A stretch of 64,000 nucleotides of DNA from Thermoplasmata archaeon (GTDB taxonomy: Archaea > Thermoplasmatota > Thermoplasmata > Lutacidiplasmatales > UBA184), in contig JBAWFC010000072.1 in NCBI GenBank assembly GCA_049591535.1, positions 4,054 through 68,053 on the forward strand, in the 5' to 3' direction. Made by a program: the position numbers and the translations under genes. Shown here piece by piece: positions 18,886-54,431 of this stretch. Each line of letters starts with the position of its first letter. The first letter of the stretch is position 1. The notes below the pieces were generated by a model. That model was not told where the DNA came from, did not search any database, and saw nothing but the letters and a program-made list of their open reading frames with translations.

Positions 18886-18991
18886 GCGGGGATAGCCAAG
18901 CTTGGTAACGGCGCAGGACTTAAACGGCGGCTCCTCCGCCGAAGAGATCCTGCCGCGCAGGCGTTCGCCGGTTCAAATCCGGCTCCCCGCT
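18886..18991 (+). tRNA. tRNA-Leu(UAA) with a ~22-nt intron at or next to the canonical 37/38 position
   Basis: Acceptor GCGGGGA/TCCCCGC. D arm GCC...GGC. Anticodon stem CAGGA/TCCTG with loop CTTAAA (anticodon 18921..18923). Intron cggcggctcctccgccgaagag (18925..18946) forms a CGGCGG/CCGCCG hairpin. Long variable arm. T arm GCCGG-TTCAAAT-CCGGC. No encoded CCA. Confidence 0.85.
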
Positions 18992-33558: not shown

Positions 33559-35109
33559 TCAGAGGGGAATGTTCCCGTGCTTCCTCGCGGGCCGCTCGTC
33601 GCGCTTCGAGGAGAGCATCCGGAGCCCGGCCACGAGGTGCGCCCGCGTTCCGGCGGGGTCGATGACGTCGTCGATATACCCTCGTTCCGCGGCCAGGTAC
33701 GGGTTGAGGAACTCCTTCCGGTACTCGGCCGTGAGGCGGGCGCGCACCGTCTCGCGGTCGGCCGCGGGAGCGGTTTCTAGGTCCCGACGGAACAGGATGT
33801 TGACCGCCCCATCCGCTCCCATCACCGCGATCTCGGCCGTCGGCCAAGCGAGGTTCAGGTCCCCGCCGAGGTGCTTCGAGCACATGACGTCGTACGCGCC
33901 GCCGTACGCCTTCCGGAGGATGACCGTCAGGAGGGGAACCGTCGCCTCGGCGTAGGCGTACAGGAGCTTCGCCCCGTGGCGGATGATCCCGCCGTGCTCC
34001 TGGGCGGCGCCCGGGAGGAAGCCGGGGACGTCGACGAACGTCAGGAGCGGGAGGTTGAACGCGTCGCAGAACCGCACGAACCGCGCCCCCTTCGTCGACG
34101 CGTTGATGTCGAGGGTCCCGGCGAGGACCGCCGGGTTGTTCGCCACCACGCCGACGGGGTGGCCCGCGAGGCGCGCCAGTCCGACCACGAGGTTCCCGGC
34201 CCACCCGGACTGCACCTCGAGGAACGACCCTGTATCCAGGACCCGGGCGATGACCTCGTGGACGTCGTAGGGCGCGTTCGCGTCCTCGGGAACGACGCGC
34301 AACAGCTCGGCCGCGGCCGAGTCCGGTGGAGCGGAGACGGCGGCGGCCGGGGCCTCCTCGAGGTTGTTCAGCGGCAGGTACGACAGGAGACTCCGGGCGA
34401 GCTGAAGGGCGTCGGCATCCGAGGCGGCGGTGAAGTGGGAGACGCCGCTCAGGGTCGCGTGGGCCTCGGCTCCCCCGAGCGCGTCCATGGTGACCTCCTC
34501 TCCGGTGACGGCCCGCACCACGTCCGGCCCGGTGATGAACATCTGGCCGGTGCCCTGGACCATGATCACGAAGTCGGTGATCGCCGGTGAGTAGACCGCA
34601 CCGCCGGCGCACGGCCCGAGGATGAGGGAGATCTGCGGGACGACGCCCGAGAGCGTGACGTTCCGGAAGAACACCTCCCCGTACCCGCCGAGGCTCATCA
34701 CGCCCTCCTGGATCCGCGCCCCGCCCGAGTCGTCGAGTCCCACGATCGGGACACCGGCCTTCCGGGCGGTCTCCATCACCTTGACGATCTTCATCGCGTG
34801 GGCCTCCCCGAGGGCACCGCCGAAGACCGTCGCGTCCTGGGCGAAGGCGCAGACCGGGCGTCCGTCGACCTCGCCCCAGCCGGTGACGACCCCGTCGCCG
34901 GGGGGTCGTCGGTCGGCGAGGCCGAACTTCTCGACGCGGTGCGTGACGAACGGGTCGACCTCGGTGAAGGTCCCCGCATCGAAGAACGACTCGAGTCGCT
35001 CCCGCGCCGTCAGCTTCCCCGCGGCCCGGTGCTTCGCGACCCGGTCCGCGCCTCCGCCCTCCCGCGCCGTGCGCTTCAGCACCGTCCATCGGTCGAAGGC
35101 GTCGCTCAT
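33559..35109 (-). CDS. Acyl-CoA carboxyltransferase, 12S / propionyl-CoA carboxylase beta / methylmalonyl-CoA decarboxylase alpha family
   Basis: ATG 35109 (MSDAFDRWTVLKRTAREGGG...KLTARERLESFFDAGTFTEVD) lies inside ORF 33559..35898. Also DSGGARIQEG and GGAYDVM. Confidence 0.92.
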   Translation of the reverse strand: MSDAFDRWTVLKRTAREGGGADRVAKHRAAGKLTARERLESFFDAGTFTEVDPFVTHRVEKFGLADRRPPGDGVVTGWGEVDGRPVCAFAQDATVFGGALGEAHAMKIVKVMETARKAGVPIVGLDDSGGARIQEGVMSLGGYGEVFFRNVTLSGVVPQISLILGPCAGGAVYSPAITDFVIMVQGTGQMFITGPDVVRAVTGEEVTMDALGGAEAHATLSGVSHFTAASDADALQLARSLLSYLPLNNLEEAPAAAVSAPPDSAAAELLRVVPEDANAPYDVHEVIARVLDTGSFLEVQSGWAGNLVVGLARLAGHPVGVVANNPAVLAGTLDINASTKGARFVRFCDAFNLPLLTFVDVPGFLPGAAQEHGGIIRHGAKLLYAYAEATVPLLTVILRKAYGGAYDVMCSKHLGGDLNLAWPTAEIAVMGADGAVNILFRRDLETAPAADRETVRARLTAEYRKEFLNPYLAAERGYIDDVIDPAGTRAHLVAGLRMLSSKRDERPARKHGNIPL

Positions 35110-41079: not shown

Positions 41080-42548
<1,469 letters not shown>

Positions 42549-47393: not shown

Positions 47394-50182
47394 TCGCCTC
47401 CGAACTCGGGGCCTTCCTCGGGGGTGCCGAACTCCTCGGTCTCCTCGTCGTCCCCTTCCTCTTCGAGCTGCGCCTCGGCCTGGAGGTCCATCTCCTCCTC
47501 GGTGACCGGCGGCGCCCCGGCGATTCCGCCCTCGGGCTTGCGCTCGTCCGACGAGCGGACGCGGCGACCCAGCACCTGGGAGACGACCTCGTCGAGCGAG
47601 ACCGCCGCCCCTTGGTAGGAACGGGTCGGGTCGATGCCGTCCTCGCCGTACTCGAACTCGATGACGGTCCCCGCGGTGTTCCGGACCGTGCGGTCCTCGG
47701 CGACCTTGAGGTCCTCGAGGGCGTTGATCAGCCGGCGCTGCATGTAGCCGGACCGGCTCGTACGGACCGCGGTATCGACGAGCGATTCACGTCCGCCCAT
47801 CGAGTGGAAGAAGTACTCCGTCGGGGAGAGTCCGCGCTTGTAGCTCGAGGAGACGAAGCCGCGGGCGCCCGAACCGAGGTCGCCGCGCTCGAAGTGCGGC
47901 AGCGTCCGGTTGAAGTATCCGCGCATCAGCCGCTCGCCCCGGACCGACTGCTGGCCCACGGCCCCGGCCATCTGCGTCAGGTTGAGCATCGAGCCCCGGG
48001 CCCCGGATTTCGCCAGGATCACGGCGGGGTTCTCGAGACCGAGGTACCGACCCGCGATCTCACCGGCCTTGTCCCGGGCCTGGCCGAGCTCGCGTCGCAC
48101 CATCACCTCGAGCGTCTCCTCGACCGAGCGGCCGGGCATCTGTTCGAGCTTGTGGTGGCGGTACTGCTCGACGAGCTCGTTGACGCGGTCGCGGGCGTCG
48201 GCGAGGGCGGTGAGGATCTCCTTGAGGGCGGGCTCGGGGACGTCCTCGTCGTCGATCCCCGTCGAGAGGCCCTTCAACCCGATCGCGGTGATCGCGAGGC
48301 GGCTCATCTCGTCGAGGAACTGTCGGGCCCGCGGCATCCCGTCGTTCCGGGCGATCGCGTCCAGGACGGCGCCCTTCTCGTAGGCGATCGCCTTCTTGTC
48401 GATCGTCCCGGCCTTCAGCACACCGTTCTCGATGACGACCCAGGCATCGTGCTTGCAGTTCAACGGGGAGCAGGTGCACCCGGCCCAGATGTTCGAGCGG
48501 AACTCGAGCGTGAGGTCCTTCGGCAGCGTCAGCGAGAACAGCTGCTTTCCCGACCAGAACGGCTGGCCGTCCTTGTCCTTCCCCGCGGGGGGTGGGAGCG
48601 GGTAGTTCAGCTTCGAGAGGAGGTACGTGACCTCGCTGCGCGAGTACGACGGGTCCTGGTACGTGAGCAGGAACGCGGCGGTGATGTGGTCGTGCAGCAT
48701 CCCGATGATCGGGCCGCCGTACCGGGGCGAGAGGATGTGCTCCTCGACCTTCATCAGGACCTTCGCCTCGGCGCGGGCCTCCTGGCTCTGGAGCACGTGC
48801 AGGTTCATCTCGTCGCCATCGAAGTCCGCGTTGTAGGGCGGGCAGTCGCACAGGTTGAACCGGAACGTCTTGTTCGGAAGGATCCGGACGAAGTGGGCCA
48901 TCATGCTCATCCGGTGGAGGCTCGGCTGCCGGTTGAACAGGACGATGTCGCCGTCGATCAGCTGGCGCTCCACGACCGAACCGGGCGTGACGAGCTCCGC
49001 GCACGCCTCGGCGTTCTTCTCCATGACCTTGATCCGCTGGCCGTCCTCGCGTACGAGGTAGTTGACCCCGCACCGGTACCGGGCGTCGGCGTCCGGCGGT
49101 GGCGTCGGCCCGCGCTTGACGAGCTCCTTCGCGACCTCCTGGTTGTGGAGCGTGACCTCGAGCGGTACCGTCAGGCCCCGCGCGACCTCGGCCGGGATCC
49201 CGACCTCGTTGATCGAGAGCAGCGGGTCCGGGCTGATCACGGTGCGTGCCGAGAAGTTGACCCGCTTTCCCGAAAGGTTCGAACGGAACCGGCCGTCCTT
49301 TCCCTTCAGGCGCTGGGCGAGTGTCTTGAGCGGTCGCCCGGACCGGTGCCGCGCCGGCGGGATGCCGCTCGTCTGGTTGTCGAAGTAGGTCGTGACGTGA
49401 TACTGGAGCAGCTCCCAGAGATCCTCGACGACGAGCTGCGGGGCGCCCATGTCGCGGTTCTCTCGCAGGCGCTGGTTGATCCGCAGGACGTCGACCAGCT
49501 TGTGGGTGAGGTCGTCCTCGCTCCGTTCCCCGCTCTCCAGGGTGATCGACGGGCGGACCTGGACGGGCGGGACCGGCAGGACGGTCAGGACCATCCACTC
49601 CGGGCGGCCGAACTTCGGGTTGAGCCCGAGGAAGCGGACGTCCTCGTCGGGGATCCGCTCGAGCCGCGCGCGGACCTCCTTCGGGGTGATCTTGTGGCTG
49701 TTCTCGCGGAACGTCGTCGGCTTGTCGAGGACGATCCGCTGCTGGATCTCGTGGCAGTGGGGACAGGAACGGTCCTCCTTCGGTTCGCGCGTCCGCGGCG
49801 CCGGAGGCGCGTCGTCGTCCGCCACCGCTTCCGCGCGCGGGGTCGGCGCGTCGGGGAGCATGCGGCCGCAGGCACGGCACGTCGAGTGCAGGAGCCGCTT
49901 GATCTCCTTCGCGTAGCCGACGTGGATCACGGGCATCGCGAGCTCGATGATCCCGAAGTGCCCGGGGCACTCGTTCACGCGGCCCCCGCAGGTCCGGCAC
50001 CGCAGGTTCGGTTCGATGACCCCGAGATGGAGGTCCATCAACCCCATCTCGATCGGGTAGCCGTCGTCGTCGTACGTGTCCGCCGTGATGATCTTCACGC
50101 CGCTCATCCGGCGGATCTCGTCCGGGGAGAGAAACGCGAACTGGAGGCCCTTGATGCGCTTCGAAAGTCCCTGCGTCGTCAT
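47390..50182 (-). CDS. rpoA1: DNA-directed RNA polymerase subunit A'
   Basis: ATG 50182. [27 protein letters not shown]; zinc motif [16 protein letters not shown]; active site [13 protein letters not shown]. Confidence 0.95.
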
Positions 50183-50190
50183 GGTTCCCC

Positions 50191-53100
50191 CTACCGCATC
50201 TCCTCGAGCTGGAGCCGCATGATCACGCCGAGACTGATCAGCTCCTCGAGCAGGAGCTTGAACGAGTAGCTCATCTCGACCGGATAGATCGACGACGTGT
50301 TCCCGCAGCTCGGGCACCGCAGCGAGTTCGCGCGCGTGTCCGGGATCGCGATGTGGCCGCAGTCCGGGTTCCCGCAGACGTACTGGATCGTCCCGTCCGA
50401 CTCGTCGAGCAGCCGGTCCTTGATGACCATCGCGACGCCGTGGCCGATCAAGCAGTCGCGCTCCATCTCACCGAACCGCAGGCCGCCCTGGCGCGAGCGT
50501 CCCTCGGTCGGCTGGCGCGTCAGGATCTGGACCGGTCCGCGCGAGCGCATGTGCATCTTGCCCGCGACCATGTGGTGGAGCTTCTGGTAGTAGATCACGC
50601 CGACGAAGATCTCGGCCTCGAACCGCCGGCCGGTGAGCCCGTCGTACAGCGTCTCGCGGCCCGACGGGTGGAAGCCGACCGCCTTGAGACCCTCCCGGAG
50701 CGCTTCTTCCCGGGCGCCGGAGAACGCCGTGCCGTCGACCGTCTTGCCCTCGAGCGCCCCGACCTTGCCGCCGAGCATCTCGAGCACGTGCGCGACCGTC
50801 ATGCGCGACGGGATCGCGTGCGGATTGATCAGAAGGTCCGGAGTGACCCCGTCGCGAGTGAACGGCAGGTTCTCCTGCGGGACGATGAGGCCGATGACCC
50901 CCTTCTGCCCGTGGCGGCTCGCGAACTTGTCGCCGAGTTCCGGCACCCGCTGGTTGCGGACCTTGACCTTGACGAGCTTCGAGATGTTCTCGCCCTCGGT
51001 CAGGATGACATTGTCGACCCATCCGGACTCGCCGAAGCGGACCGTGACGCTCGTCTCGCGCCGCTTCTGCGGGGTCAGGAGGTCGGTCTTCTCCTCGAGG
51101 AACCGCGGCGGGCTCGTCTTGCCGACCAGCACGTCGCCTTCGGTGACCTCGAGCTCGGGGAAGATCAGGCCGTCCTCACCCAGGTTGCGGTACGCGGTAT
51201 CGACCCGAGCACCCGCGACGTCCGGTCGCGGAATCTCGAACCGGTCCTCCTGGCCGCCGGGGTACTTGCGTTCCTCCCCGCGGTAGGTCCGGAAGAACGA
51301 CGAGCGTCCGAGGCCGCGGTCGATGGCGCCCTTCGAAAAGACGAGGGCGTCCTGCATGTTGTACCCCTCGTAGGAGAGGACCGCGACGACGAAGTTCTGG
51401 CCCGCCGGCCGCTCGGTGAAGTGGACGTAGCGCATCGTCTGCGTCTGGAGCAGCGGTGCCTGCGGGTAGTGGAGCAGGTGTCCGCGGGTGTCGGGGCGCC
51501 GCCGATAGTTGACCGACTCGACCCCGAGCGCCTGCTTCGCCATCCCGGAGCCCATCGTGTTCCGGGGGGCGGAGTTGTGCTCGGGGTACGGGATGAGCCC
51601 CGTGCAGACGCCGAGCATCAGGTTCGGGTCGATCTCGAGGTGGGTGTGGATCTCCGAGATGAGGCTCGCGGTCGGGAACTCGGACTTGCAGTGGCCGCAC
51701 TCGACCATCGCCTGGTCGCGCTTATCGCCCATCGACACCCAGCGGATGTCGCCGCGGCTCAGCGCGCGCTCGCACTTCGGGCAGCGGTCGGGCGGAACGA
51801 ACGGCTCGATCGCGATGAGGGAGTCCTCCTCCTCTTCGGCGTCGAGCCACTCGATCTTGCCCTCGCGGATCAGGTCGGTGAACGAGCGGGTGCCCCGCGC
51901 GAGCTCGTCGAGGTCGGTGCGCGTCGCTCGCGGGACGCCGTTCTTGACGACGACGAGCGGGCGGCGGAGCCGGCCGGGGTCGCAGTGGACGATGACCTCG
52001 TTCATCTCCGCGTCGTAGCGGACGTTGATCTCGTAGGTCTTGTCCTCGAGCGTGGACGACAGCGTCCGGGTCCGCCGGCGTTCGCGGATGTCGCGGACGA
52101 GGTCGAGCGGCTGCGAGTGGAGCCCGATCAGGTTCCCGTTGACGTAGACCCGGGCGGCCCGCTTCCCGCGCGGCGCGGCCGCCTCCTGGAAGACCTCGGG
52201 GCCGATCTCGCGGGTGTTGTTGTCGCGCAGGATGAGGGTGACCTCCTCCTCGTCGGTCCCTTCGGAGACGTCGACGCAGAGTGCGTAGTTCTTGACGAGG
52301 CCGCAGTTCTGCCCTTCGGGGGTCTCGTTCGGGCAGAGGCGCCCCCACTGGGTCGGGTGCAGGTCGCGCGCCTCGAAGTGCGGTTGGGTACGGGTGAGCG
52401 GGCTCGTCACCCGGCGCAGATGGCTGATCGTCGACATGTGGCTCGTCCGGTCCAGCACCTGGCTGACCCCGGCGCGGCCGCCGACCCAGTTGCCCGTCGC
52501 GAGCGCGTGGACGAGGCGCTGGGTCAGGAGGTCCGGCCGGATCGCGCTCGCGATCCGAAGGTCCTTCTTGCGCGCGAACGAGCGCTCGAGCTGGTACTTG
52601 AGATCCTTGAGGAGGAGGGAGAACGCGACTCGGAACAGGTCCTCCATCAGGTCGCCGGCGAGCTTCAAGCGCTTGTTTGCGTAGTGGTCCTTGTCGTCCT
52701 CGCCCCGGACCTTGAGGTGGAGCTCGAGGACGGTACGCGCCATCCGCGCGAGGTAGAGCGCCTTCTTCAGGCGGTCGTGTTTCGTGTCTCCCAGGTGCGG
52801 GAGCAGCGACCGGTCGAGGATCCCGTCGACCTTGCGCTGGCGGTATTCCTTCGCCTGGCCGGTCGCGAACTTCTTCTCGAGGAAGACGAGCGCGTCCTCG
52901 GTCGAAAGCACCCCTTCGGGCGGGTAGAGCTTCTTCGAGACGCACTCCTCGAGGTTGACGTTGAGCAGATGCTTCATCGTCTGGACGAACGGTTCGTCCA
53001 GCGGCAGCAGCTCCCCGAGGACCGCCTGGAAGATCTCCTCGTCGTTCTTCATCCCGAGGGCCTTCATCAGGATCACGAGCGGGATCTGCCCGCTCGCCGT

Positions 53101-53862
53101 CGGGACCGAGACCTGGAGCACGCCGTCCTTCTTCTTCTCGACGACCGTGAGCGACCGGTACCCGCCGCGCTGGCTGAACACCTTGGCGCTCTCGATCGGG
53201 GTGCCGTAGCGCTCGTTGTACTCGGCGAAGATCCGGTTCGGTGCGAGGTCCTCGAGACTGATGATGACCCGTTCGGTCCCGCCGATGATCGCGTACCCTC
53301 CGGGGTCGAGCGGGTCCTCGCCGTACTCGACGAGCTTCGCGCGGTACTCGTCGTCGGAGAGCGCGATCTGCCCGTCGGACTCGATGTTCGACTTGGAGAG
53401 GTTGCACTGTCGGCTCTTGACCATGATCGGGAGGTCGCCGATGTGGACGGTCTCGCTCGCGCGCTCGACCCCGTTCTCGACGACGGTGACGTCGAGGTAG
53501 ATCGGGGCCTGGTACGTGAGGTTCCGCAGGCGCGCTTCCATCGGCGTGAGCGTCGGCTTCGAACCGACCGGTTCCTTGACGAACGGCTTGCCGATCCGGA
53601 TCGTGGGCTCGGCGGACGGGCTGACGTAGCCGCGCGCGTCGCGTCGGCGGCCGACGCGGACCTGGATCGAGCTCTTCGTCTTCTGGACGTCGAGGCGGAC
53701 CATCCCGTGCTCGGTCGAGTCCTCGCTGACGCGGGCCTCGTCGACGATCCGCTGCATGCGCGAGTTCGGGTTGTCTTCCGTCGGGAGGAAGTCGTTGAAG
53801 CTGGCGAGGTGGTGGTTGACGATCGAGCGCTCCCGGAAGAAGGCGTCTACGATTTCGCGCAT
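50191..53862 (-). CDS. rpoB: DNA-directed RNA polymerase subunit B, unsplit (B' and B'' fused, 1223 aa)
   Basis: ATG 53862 ([26 protein letters not shown]) to the C-terminal zinc ribbon CGNPDCGH...CPSCG. Continuous frame; [12 protein letters not shown] and ERDCLIGHG present. Confidence 0.95.
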
Positions 53863-53869
53863 GGATTCG

Positions 53870-54208
53870 TCAGCTCCCCCCGACCGCGGGGACGATGAGG
53901 CGGTAGGCGATCGCTTCGCCGGCGGTGGCGCTCGGGCGACGGACCCGGACGAGCCGGCCGGTGAAGTTCTCGCCGGCGTCGCGCCCCGTGACGAACTTGG
54001 GGTCGGTCTGGAGACCCGGGTCACCGACGAGGATCTTGGGCATGCGCTCCGCGACGGTCTCGAGCTCCTCGAGGACCTTCTTCGTCTCCTCCTCGCTCAG
54101 GATCTCGTGACGCGGCAGGAGATGATGCGCCACGAACGGGCGCACGGGCTTCGGCGGCGCTCCGGCGGCAGGTCGCTTCTTCGAACGGCGTACGGGACTC
54201 GGGGTCAT
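53870..54208 (-). CDS. rpoH: DNA-directed RNA polymerase subunit H
   Basis: [22 protein letters not shown]...[10 protein letters not shown]...[20 protein letters not shown]. An alternative GTG start at 54133 would remove the basic 25-aa N-terminal extension. Confidence 0.9.
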
Positions 54209-54229
54209 GCGTGCACTCCAGGAACGTCA

Positions 54230-54372
54230 CGGGCCCGGGGGGATGCTCGGAGCGACTCCGCGCGCCGCGCGGGGCGGCTCGTTCGAACCCCCGACCAACT
54301 GGTTAAAAGCCAGATGCTCTTTGTAGGGCCGGCGGGTGTGCCGCGCGGCCAACCTAGCTGAGCTACGGGCCC
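54230..54372 (-). tRNA. tRNA-Lys(UUU) interrupted by two non-canonical introns: about 31 nt in the D-loop and 38 nt in the T-loop
   Basis: Minus-strand read: GGGCCCG-TA-GCTC-AGCTAGG[..insert..]A-GAGC-A-TCTGG-CTTTTAA-CCAGT-TGGTC-GGGGG-TTCGAA[..38 nt..]T-CCCCC-CGGGCCC-G. Anticodon TTT is at 54307..54305. The exons assemble into a 74-75 nt cloverleaf. Confidence 0.8.
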
Positions 54373-54431
54373 GATTCCGTTCCGGACGGAAGCGACGGGA
54401 CCGTCGTATTTCAGCGTATCCCTGACGGAAA

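Follow-up and report, generated by a model that had tools for sequence, protein, structure and literature searches.

A tRNA-Lys(UUU) gene with predicted D-loop and T-loop introns upstream of rpoH in a Thermoplasmata archaeon

Introns in the D- and T-loops of archaeal tRNAs, as well as tRNA genes with several introns, are already well known (PMC3488258; PMC8450103). Multi-intron tRNAs have been described from the Thermoproteales and other Crenarchaeota, the Thaumarchaeota, Nanoarchaeum, Korarchaeum, and ARMAN-1/2, whereby exon-intron pairing forms a bulge-helix-bulge (BHB) motif and excision of the introns restores the cloverleaf (PMC3488258; PMC4033280; PMC8450103). The published lists of such genes comprise Crenarchaeota, Nanoarchaeum, Korarchaeum, ARMAN, and, as two euryarchaea, M. 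kandleri and M. thermautotrophicus, while Thermoplasmata are absent (PMC4033280). For Euryarchaeota with alpha4 or alpha2 splicing endonucleases (EndA), reviews describe only a single intron at the canonical position 37/38 (PMC4090602). Cluster II lineages are reported to use the alpha'2 enzyme exclusively, and the occurrence of disrupted tRNA genes tracks the specificity loops of EndA (PMC5829648). Here, we analyzed a stretch of 64,000 nucleotides (nt) from an uncultured soil Thermoplasmata archaeon (contig JBAWFC010000072.1; the whole stretch is referred to as the window), which contains a tRNA-Lys(UUU) gene of 143 nt with two predicted introns on the minus strand (54372..54230), directly upstream of rpoH. 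A multi-intron tRNA gene with introns at non-canonical positions is thus known in kind, but its occurrence in Thermoplasmata is unexpected.

The gene shares with the described multi-intron systems the presence of more than one predicted intron, the pairing of exon and intron in BHB-like motifs, and a cloverleaf that is restored upon in silico splicing. Unlike those systems, it occurs in Thermoplasmata, and the EndA of related genomes is of the alpha'2 type without loop insertion and thus neither (alpha-beta)2 nor epsilon2. A second comparison is offered by the pre-tRNA-Glu(UUC) of M. kandleri, which has a canonical intron together with a D-loop intron of the HBh' type at position 20b/21 (PMC5829648). 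Common to both cases are a euryarchaeal-type host, a D-loop intron beside A21 with a relaxed 3' side, and a loop-less EndA. The two cases differ in the isoacceptor (Glu vs. Lys) and in the location of the other intron, which is at 37/38 in M. kandleri but in the T-loop in our gene. Furthermore, in the M. kandleri EndA separate alpha and beta subunits assemble into a heterotetramer, whereas the EndA of the clade studied here combines two units in one polypeptide of 354 amino acids (aa). An initial reading of the DNA by a model, made without database searches (the sequence-only reading), had called such introns unusual for a euryarchaeal-type lineage, which agrees with the reviews and lists cited above and with the Thermoplasmata titles of the related genomes.

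Structure and conservation of the tRNA gene

All exon sequences are given as read from the minus strand. Exon 1 (54352..54372, or including 54351 in an alternative register) begins at the 5' end of the gene (54372) and comprises the acceptor strand GGGCCCG, U8 and A9 (TA), the D-stem strand GCTC, and the D-loop up to G18 G19 U20, whereby the stretch between the D-stem strand and intron 1 is AGCTAGGT. Exon 2 (54282..54320) continues with A21, the second D-stem strand GAGC, a single A, the anticodon arm TCTGG-CTTTTAA-CCAGT with the anticodon TTT at 54307..54305, the variable loop TGGTC, the T-stem strand GGGGG, and the T-loop nucleotides 54-59 (TTCGAA). After intron 2, exon 3 (54230..54243) supplies T60, the second T-stem strand CCCCC, the acceptor strand CGGGCCC, and the discriminator G73 at 54230; a CCA end is not encoded. 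The spliced sequence is predicted to form a cloverleaf with the anticodon UUU, in which the universal residues U8, A14, G18 G19, A21, U33, T54-C56, and A58 are present.

In the raw DNA, ARAGORN detects no tRNA at this locus, neither in plain nor in intron mode, and there is no match at the locus to the Rfam tRNA model at the gathering score or at E<=5. The gene is missed by both in all of the 83 related loci described below. Removal of both inserts from the sequence leads to a tRNA-Lys(ttt) call by ARAGORN for either register of the D-loop insert (76 nt or 74 nt). Removal of a single insert yields no tRNA-Lys call, and the form from which only the T-loop insert has been excised is misread as tRNA-Stop(tta) with a spurious intron. 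The whole window was also scanned blindly on both strands (128 kb of searched strand) for excisable segments of 12-110 nt that could be delimited by a 4-bp helix, a bulge of 3 nt, and an inner helix with 3 bp or more. The 18,704 candidates were excised singly and in 52,620 pairs, and each product was run through ARAGORN. The sole double excision that yields a tRNA-Lys is that of 54350..54322 together with 54281..54244. The scan recovers this very locus and these boundaries. The remaining double-excision matches are a different cut within this locus and one false tRNA-SeC in rpoA'. Calls of a tRNA-SeC and a tRNA-Ser after excision at 47761..47938 (minus strand) and 49750..49796 (plus strand), within the rpoA'/rpoB coding region, were taken as false positives of the scan, as these sites lie in conserved coding sequence. 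The unspliced RNA has a folding z-score of -3.65 relative to dinucleotide-preserving shuffles. The only tRNA of the window that ARAGORN and Rfam report is a tRNA-Leu(UAA) on the plus strand (18886..18991), which has an ordinary 22-nt intron after position 37; judged by eye, the central helix of that intron apparently contains one A-G mismatch (CUUA against GAAG).

Homologues of the 112-aa RpoH encoded next to the tRNA gene were used to collect related loci. There are hundreds of close homologues, which are named as Thermoplasmata archaeon metagenome-assembled genomes (MAGs) at NCBI, and an identical RpoH together with an identical tRNA locus is found on four contigs. A further 80 loci came from one scan of species-representative genomes, whose titles are those of Thermoplasmata MAGs, including UBA184, and in one case "bacterium". 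Both inserts are present in every locus with sufficient upstream DNA (83/83), always between a UPF0147 gene and rpoH, and one more locus is truncated. This architecture is the same across many independent assemblies and projects. The related loci comprise 77 distinct sequences, which align nearly gap-free. Here, no variation is seen in the stems of the acceptor, D, and T arms and at most loop positions, whereas the inserts are variable. In exon 1, columns 1-15 and 19-20 do not vary, column 21 is T in 76 of the 77 sequences, and columns 16-18 (D-loop positions 16-17a) are variable and covary with intron columns 49-51; in exon 3 every column is invariant (n=77). The exons are thus maintained despite a divergence of RpoH down to 56% identity. 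Given the alignment only and no constraint, RNAalifold predicts the cloverleaf plus two bulge-helix-bulge motifs. In this consensus structure, pairing holds in 96.8% of the cells, and compensatory changes on both sides occur at 14 pairs. None of 500 shuffles reached the observed values, and sliding the partners by 1-3 columns reduced the pairing to 36-57%. The sequence-only reading had proposed a complete tRNA-Lys(UUU) cloverleaf with D- and T-loop introns directly upstream of rpoH; its stem sequences are exactly those found on the minus strand, and conservation, covariation, and the intron-less orthologues described below support the proposed arrangement.

The two predicted introns and the splicing endonuclease of related genomes

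The T-loop intron (intron 2, 54244..54281, minus strand) is 38 nt long and interrupts the gene at position 59/60. Its central helix H pairs the exon nucleotides T54 T55 C56 G57 (54284..54287) with CGAG of the intron (54246..54249), including one U-G pair, and is flanked by the bulges AAC and CAT. The outer helix h is formed by the T stem (GGGGG/CCCCC) and the inner helix h' by GAGC (54277..54280) and GCTC (54250..54253). In the 77 sequences, H is paired in 98.7% of the cells, and its intron side shows only A/G changes, which are located opposite the two U residues (UA:50 UG:23; UG:45 UA:32). The T stem is paired throughout (100%), and h' is paired in 93% with changes on both sides at three of its four pairs. 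By its predicted pairing, the T-loop intron motif is a strict hBHBh' motif, in which all of the bulges and flanking helices that were tested for are present. Cutting two nt into each bulge would give TTCGAA|...|T and hence the T-loop TTCGAAT. In the relatives, the length of this intron is mostly 38 nt, in some cases 35 or 29 nt. The geometry mirrors that of the canonical 37/38 intron, since in both cases the intron follows position 6 of a 7-nt loop on a 5-bp stem, and a 4-bp helix between loop nucleotides 1-4 and the 3' end of the intron is bordered by two 3-nt bulges. The difference is the location in the T arm at 59/60, whereas the tRNA-Leu(UAA) of the window has the ordinary 37/38 type.

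The D-loop intron (intron 1, 54321..54351, minus strand) can be placed in two ways, either as 31 nt (54351..54321, position 20/21) or as 29 nt (54350..54322, position 20a/20b). According to the RNAalifold consensus, its central helix pairs the exon nucleotides U17 A17a G18 G19 (TAGG, 54353..54356) with CCTA of the intron (54324..54327). A 3-nt 5' bulge (54350..54352) precedes the inner helix, which is formed by GCCG (54346..54349) and CGGC (54328..54331). The central helix (columns 17-20/47-50) is paired in 99.7% of the cells of the 77 sequences, with pair counts of UA:51 CG:16 UG:9 and AU:50 CG:27. The inner helix is GC-rich and 92% paired, with changes on both sides at 5/6 pairs of the helix. 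The length of this intron is nearly constant in the related loci (29 nt, one of 30). The 4-bp central helix, the 3-nt 5' bulge, and the inner helix are therefore all present, but a clean 3-nt 3' bulge adjoined by an outer helix is missing in intron 1. Instead, the 3' site lies opposite A14 G15 (N16) in an internal loop of 2-3 x 3-4 nt, with the D stem beyond this loop. Since the 3' site sits in an internal loop, the motif is of the relaxed HBh' type and not a strict BHB. Reading both intron sequences by eye, we noticed no C/D-box small RNA motifs, for which no motif search was run.

The two placements of intron 1 arise because one and the same C can pair either with G19 or with the G after the bulge, and they are isoenergetic (-46.1 kcal/mol each). 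Register (i) (29 nt, 54350..54322) contains the 4-bp helix found in 99.7% of the cells and gives an 11-nt D-loop. In register (ii) (31 nt, 54351..54321), a fourth pair (columns 16/51) is possible in just 27 of the 77 sequences, yet the product has the D-loop AGCTAGGTA, which is that of the intron-less orthologues. The 29-nt register as sole splice model was dropped once those orthologues showed a 9-nt D-loop. With regard to the sequence-only reading, its 38-nt T-loop insert (54244..54281) matches the splice model exactly, and its 31-nt D-loop insert (54321..54351) corresponds to the register that gives the orthologous D-loop, although the 29-nt register is equally allowed. Its central helices of 3 bp have to be extended to 4 bp in both introns (TAGG/CCTA and UUCG/CGAG, the latter with a U-G pair), and its description of both motifs as relaxed applies to the HBh'-like D-loop intron but not to the strict T-loop intron.

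EndA was sought in the window and in related genomes. A tblastn search of the window and the first loci collected, for which EndA of M. jannaschii and the C-domain of the A. fulgidus enzyme served as queries, found no EndA; a weak match at 33659..33760 was rejected as it lies inside a carboxylase gene. A homologue search with the A. fulgidus C-domain returned no Thermoplasmata and only proteins of 100-189 aa, whereby such a short query may miss two-unit enzymes. A large family of 354-aa proteins titled tRNA-intron lyase [Thermoplasmata archaeon] was obtained by searching exhaustively with HMMER, with an EndA fragment from Halorubrum as query, and by a composition filter for GC-rich non-halophiles, a profile search, and contig look-ups. 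These proteins have the domain order PF02778-PF01974-PF02778-PF01974, i.e., two tandem units in one polypeptide. In three MAGs, recognized by the accession prefix common to both contigs, such an EndA occurs together with the interrupted tRNA gene, namely DASPQG01 (L070/P0351), JBAQAF01 (L051/P0342), and JBEKEY01 (L017/P0378). The triad Y292, H300, and K331 of the C-terminal unit is invariant in 24 EndA sequences, whereas inspection of the alignment, without a formal test, revealed no aligned Tyr-His-Lys triad in the N-terminal unit.

At the ASL/CSL site, which holds the inserted specificity loop in the ARMAN and crenarchaeal enzymes and for which the A. fulgidus-ASL chimera 3p1y marks the position of the insert, the clade EndA reads YGSRVGDRLELSLLEA compared to YGSEKGDLVTLSLIES in A. 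fulgidus and has the same length as the A. fulgidus and M. jannaschii enzymes. Nor does the protein exceed M. jannaschii EndA in length in the Tyr-His and His-Lys intervals or at the C-terminus. The AlphaFold model of the clade EndA (pLDDT 92.6) contains no low-confidence segment or loop and matches 5x89, 2gjw, 1r11, and 2ohc over its full length. The best match is the fused M. kandleri enzyme 5x89 (TM query/target 0.86 / 0.90), followed by A. fulgidus alpha'2 (0.76 / 0.86-0.88) and T. acidophilum alpha'2 (0.64 / 0.77). From the two units, the triad in the C-terminal unit only, the structure matches, and the lack of a loop insertion, it follows that the relatives encode an alpha'2-type enzyme without the known loops. 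A loop insertion near the active site, as it characterizes the broad-specificity enzymes ((alpha-beta)2 with L1, epsilon2 with L2, and L3-bearing alpha4), was not found in this EndA. The broadened-specificity endonuclease that the sequence-only reading had expected is thus not what the relatives encode. In the endA neighborhood, which is conserved among the related MAGs (L205-L213), a peptidase M20/M28 gene, a CarS-like gene, and a phosphoribosyltransferase gene, which overlaps endA by 4 nt, are located upstream, and in most loci a tryptophan synthase alpha gene follows downstream on the opposite strand.

Orthologous loci and linkage to the rpoH operon

A scan of metagenome contigs for the exon pattern with a short or absent D-loop insert yielded at least 120 loci. 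Among the matches listed, 38 contigs from distant, mostly low-GC lineages encode an RpoH homologue directly 3' of the tRNA, with 31-43% identity to the RpoH of the window. Most of these 38 loci contain a plain 74-nt tRNA-Lys(UUU) gene, e.g., L199, L156, and L133, whereby the uninterrupted gene of L199 is identical to the register (ii) spliced product in 72 of 74 positions. These three uninterrupted genes resemble the window gene in their position upstream of rpoH, the D-loop AGCTAGGTA, and the T-loop TTCGAAT, but differ from it by the lack of introns, the GC content of their contigs (31-48%), and an RpoB N-terminus that is only about 50% identical. Also among the matches listed, two rpoH-adjacent loci (L115 and L157) contain a T-loop intron only, with inserts of about 30 nt, and introns at both positions are found in L088, L148, and L170, which are rpoH-adjacent, and in L085 and L136, for which no rpoH neighbor was confirmed. 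T-loop-only inserts were further observed in L089 (about 150 nt, A/T-rich) and L137 (about 68 nt).

Measured as identity to the window over the first 400 residues of RpoB, the 84-locus clade spans 86.5-100%, the outgroup with both introns (L148, L170, L088) has 61-62%, the intron-less loci about 50%, and the T-loop-intron-only locus L115 has 48%. On this scale, the two-intron state is therefore old and has been passed on vertically. Since tRNA-Lys(UUU) and rpoH are adjacent in distant lineages as well, their linkage is far older than the introns. With three states upstream of rpoH (no intron, T-loop intron only, both introns), the orthologous loci provide a clean series for the study of intron gain.

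Downstream of the tRNA gene, rpoH (53870..54208, minus strand, PF01191) heads the rpoH-rpoB-rpoA' cluster and encodes a protein whose length of 112 aa is conserved in the homologues. The N-terminus of RpoH carries a basic extension of about 25 residues, of which the length as well as P21, R23, P24, and F25 are conserved in the clade; for most of the distant homologues, alignments begin only at about residue 25-28. The spacer between the tRNA gene and rpoH is 21 nt long, as it is in 63 of the 77 loci, and there is no A/T-rich element in the stretch from the T arm to rpoH. Such an element is located upstream of the tRNA gene, directly after the UPF0147 stop codon. This promoter-like element (ATACGCTGAAATACG / ATAnnCTGAAATACG; 54405..54419, minus strand) consists of 15 nt at about -47 to -33 from the tRNA 5' end and shows 70-99% column conservation in 77 loci. 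It probably represents the BRE/TATA of a promoter for the tRNA gene (and the rpoH operon), which would put the transcription start some 10-12 nt ahead of the mature 5' end.

The sequences flanking the tRNA can form an additional helix of 6-7 bp, which prolongs the acceptor stem across an internal loop of about 4 x 3 nt. The leader half is GGAACGG (54377..54383, nt -11 to -5) and the trailer half is CGTTCC (54221..54226, nt +3 to +9), both on the minus strand; the trailer is followed by a Shine-Dalgarno-like GGAG (54219..54216) and the rpoH ATG at 54208. In 71 distinct combinations, 85% of the cells are paired compared to 43-57% in slid controls, and none of 1000 shuffles reached the observed value. 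Covariation is seen at -8/+6 (GC 36, AT 14, GT 12). An interpretation of this helix as a third BHB was rejected since the unpaired nucleotides face each other and there is no 4-bp offset. The 21-nt GGAG-containing spacer, the conserved promoter-like element of the tRNA gene itself, and the leader-trailer helix make it likely that the tRNA is co-transcribed with the RNA polymerase operon. In this context, the simplest reading would be that the tRNA and rpoH-rpoB-rpoA' share one transcript and that 3' processing of the tRNA generates the mRNA 5' end. A coupling of tRNA maturation to rpoH expression, as suggested by the sequence-only reading, is plausible given the 21-nt spacer without A/T-rich element and the synteny in distant lineages. 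A literature search on archaeal tRNA-rpoH co-transcription found nothing relevant.

Maturation model, alternative explanations, and neighboring genes

Based on these data, we consider it very probable that the locus represents a functional tRNA-Lys(UUU) gene of a Thermoplasmata archaeon that is interrupted by two protein-spliced BHB introns, and the conserved gene as such is real and almost certainly functional. Transcription would start about 10-12 nt 5' of the mature end, as directed by the conserved A/T-rich element, and the precursor would fold into the cloverleaf plus two extra hairpins. EndA, which in the relatives is a two-unit alpha'2 enzyme, might then cut two nt into each 3-nt bulge, the three exons could be joined by an RtcB-type ligase, and the ends would be trimmed by RNase P and RNase Z prior to CCA addition. 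The T-loop intron would be a strict substrate that any EndA should cut. In the D-loop intron, the 4-bp helix is in place together with the 5' bulge and the inner helix, whereas the 3' site lies in a small internal loop beside the D stem. The RNA polymerase operon would probably be transcribed through the tRNA, and 3' processing of the tRNA would probably yield the 5' end of the mRNA.

Several points weigh against this interpretation. Splicing is deduced from the DNA, and the boundaries of the D-loop intron are ambiguous by one nt per side, which the sequence cannot fix. The linkage of EndA and interrupted tRNA gene covers three related MAGs, which are genomes other than that of the window. Moreover, a comparable D-loop HBh' intron was removed only inefficiently in vitro by A. 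fulgidus alpha'2 and by the loop-less M. kandleri EndA (PMC5829648), so that a loop-less alpha'2 is not obviously sufficient for intron 1. It might therefore be that both inserts are real introns but that the D-loop intron is no ordinary substrate of such an enzyme, and that it is cut at other positions, cut only after removal of the T-loop intron, processed with an accessory factor, or accepted owing to a specificity that has been widened outside the L1-L3 loops. Besides the in vitro data, this would be in line with the 3' site in an internal loop instead of a clean bulge and with an EndA that lacks any insertion at the ASL/CSL site, in the Tyr-His and His-Lys intervals, and at the C-terminus. 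We regard it as unlikely, however, as nearly all of the 77 sequences retain the 4-bp helix together with the 3-nt 5' bulge and show compensatory changes, just as measuring by an ordinary EndA predicts, the intron length is almost fixed, and no candidate accessory factor turned up.

A different explanation would be that the inserts are retained and form expansion hairpins of the D- and T-loop in an RNA with a non-translational role or in an unusual tRNA-like RNA. The hairpins of the inserts are indeed conserved structures themselves, and the removal of the inserts is predicted from the DNA. Yet the inserts part G18 G19 from A21 and break the T-loop at 59/60, and thus disrupt elements of the tRNA elbow. 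In addition, the covarying helices are exon-intron BHB helices with 3-nt bulges at a fixed distance, which a mere expansion hairpin does not require, and other lineages have a plain 74-nt tRNA at the orthologous loci, so that retention seems very improbable. That the gene is not reported by ARAGORN and the Rfam tRNA model could also be taken to indicate a decayed or insertion-disrupted pseudogene, a chance cloverleaf, or an assembly artifact. The comparative data contradict this and leave it with hardly any probability, since 83 loci, which stem from many independent assemblies and projects, share one architecture, the exons stay invariant over the range of RpoH divergence, covariation is strong, and the blind scan of 128 kb of strand recovered this locus only.

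With two protein-spliced introns as the favored interpretation, multi-intron tRNA genes with non-canonical positions would extend to the Thermoplasmata, whose relatives are described with single canonical introns and a strict alpha'2 enzyme. The clade would thereby put to a natural test the proposal that disrupted tRNA genes and the specificity loops of EndA have evolved together. Here, the T-loop intron fits a strict enzyme easily, and the D-loop intron is the interesting case. From annotations relying on finders like ARAGORN or the Rfam model, tRNA-Lys(UUU) would be absent, with consequences for the tRNA counts used in judging genome quality and for the inference of codon usage. The tRNA-rpoH arrangement suggests that the mRNA of the RNA polymerase operon receives its 5' end through tRNA processing. 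Only tentatively, we propose a linked pair of features, namely that a loop-less alpha'2 clears the imperfect D-loop intron throughout the lineage and that the rpoH-rpoB-rpoA transcript has the tRNA as its 5' module. In this case, alpha'2 would be broader in vivo than implied by the published correlation of loops and disrupted tRNA genes, or its specificity would have been widened by an undescribed route. The way in which a doubly interrupted tRNA is folded, spliced, and trimmed at its 3' end would then determine where the RNA polymerase mRNA begins and perhaps how much of it is made.

Apart from these loci, the window contains a complete archaeal 16S rRNA gene (41080..42548, minus strand); there is no 23S or 5S match in the window, so the rRNA genes are apparently unlinked. 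The rpoB gene (50191..53862) is unsplit and encodes a protein of 1223 aa.

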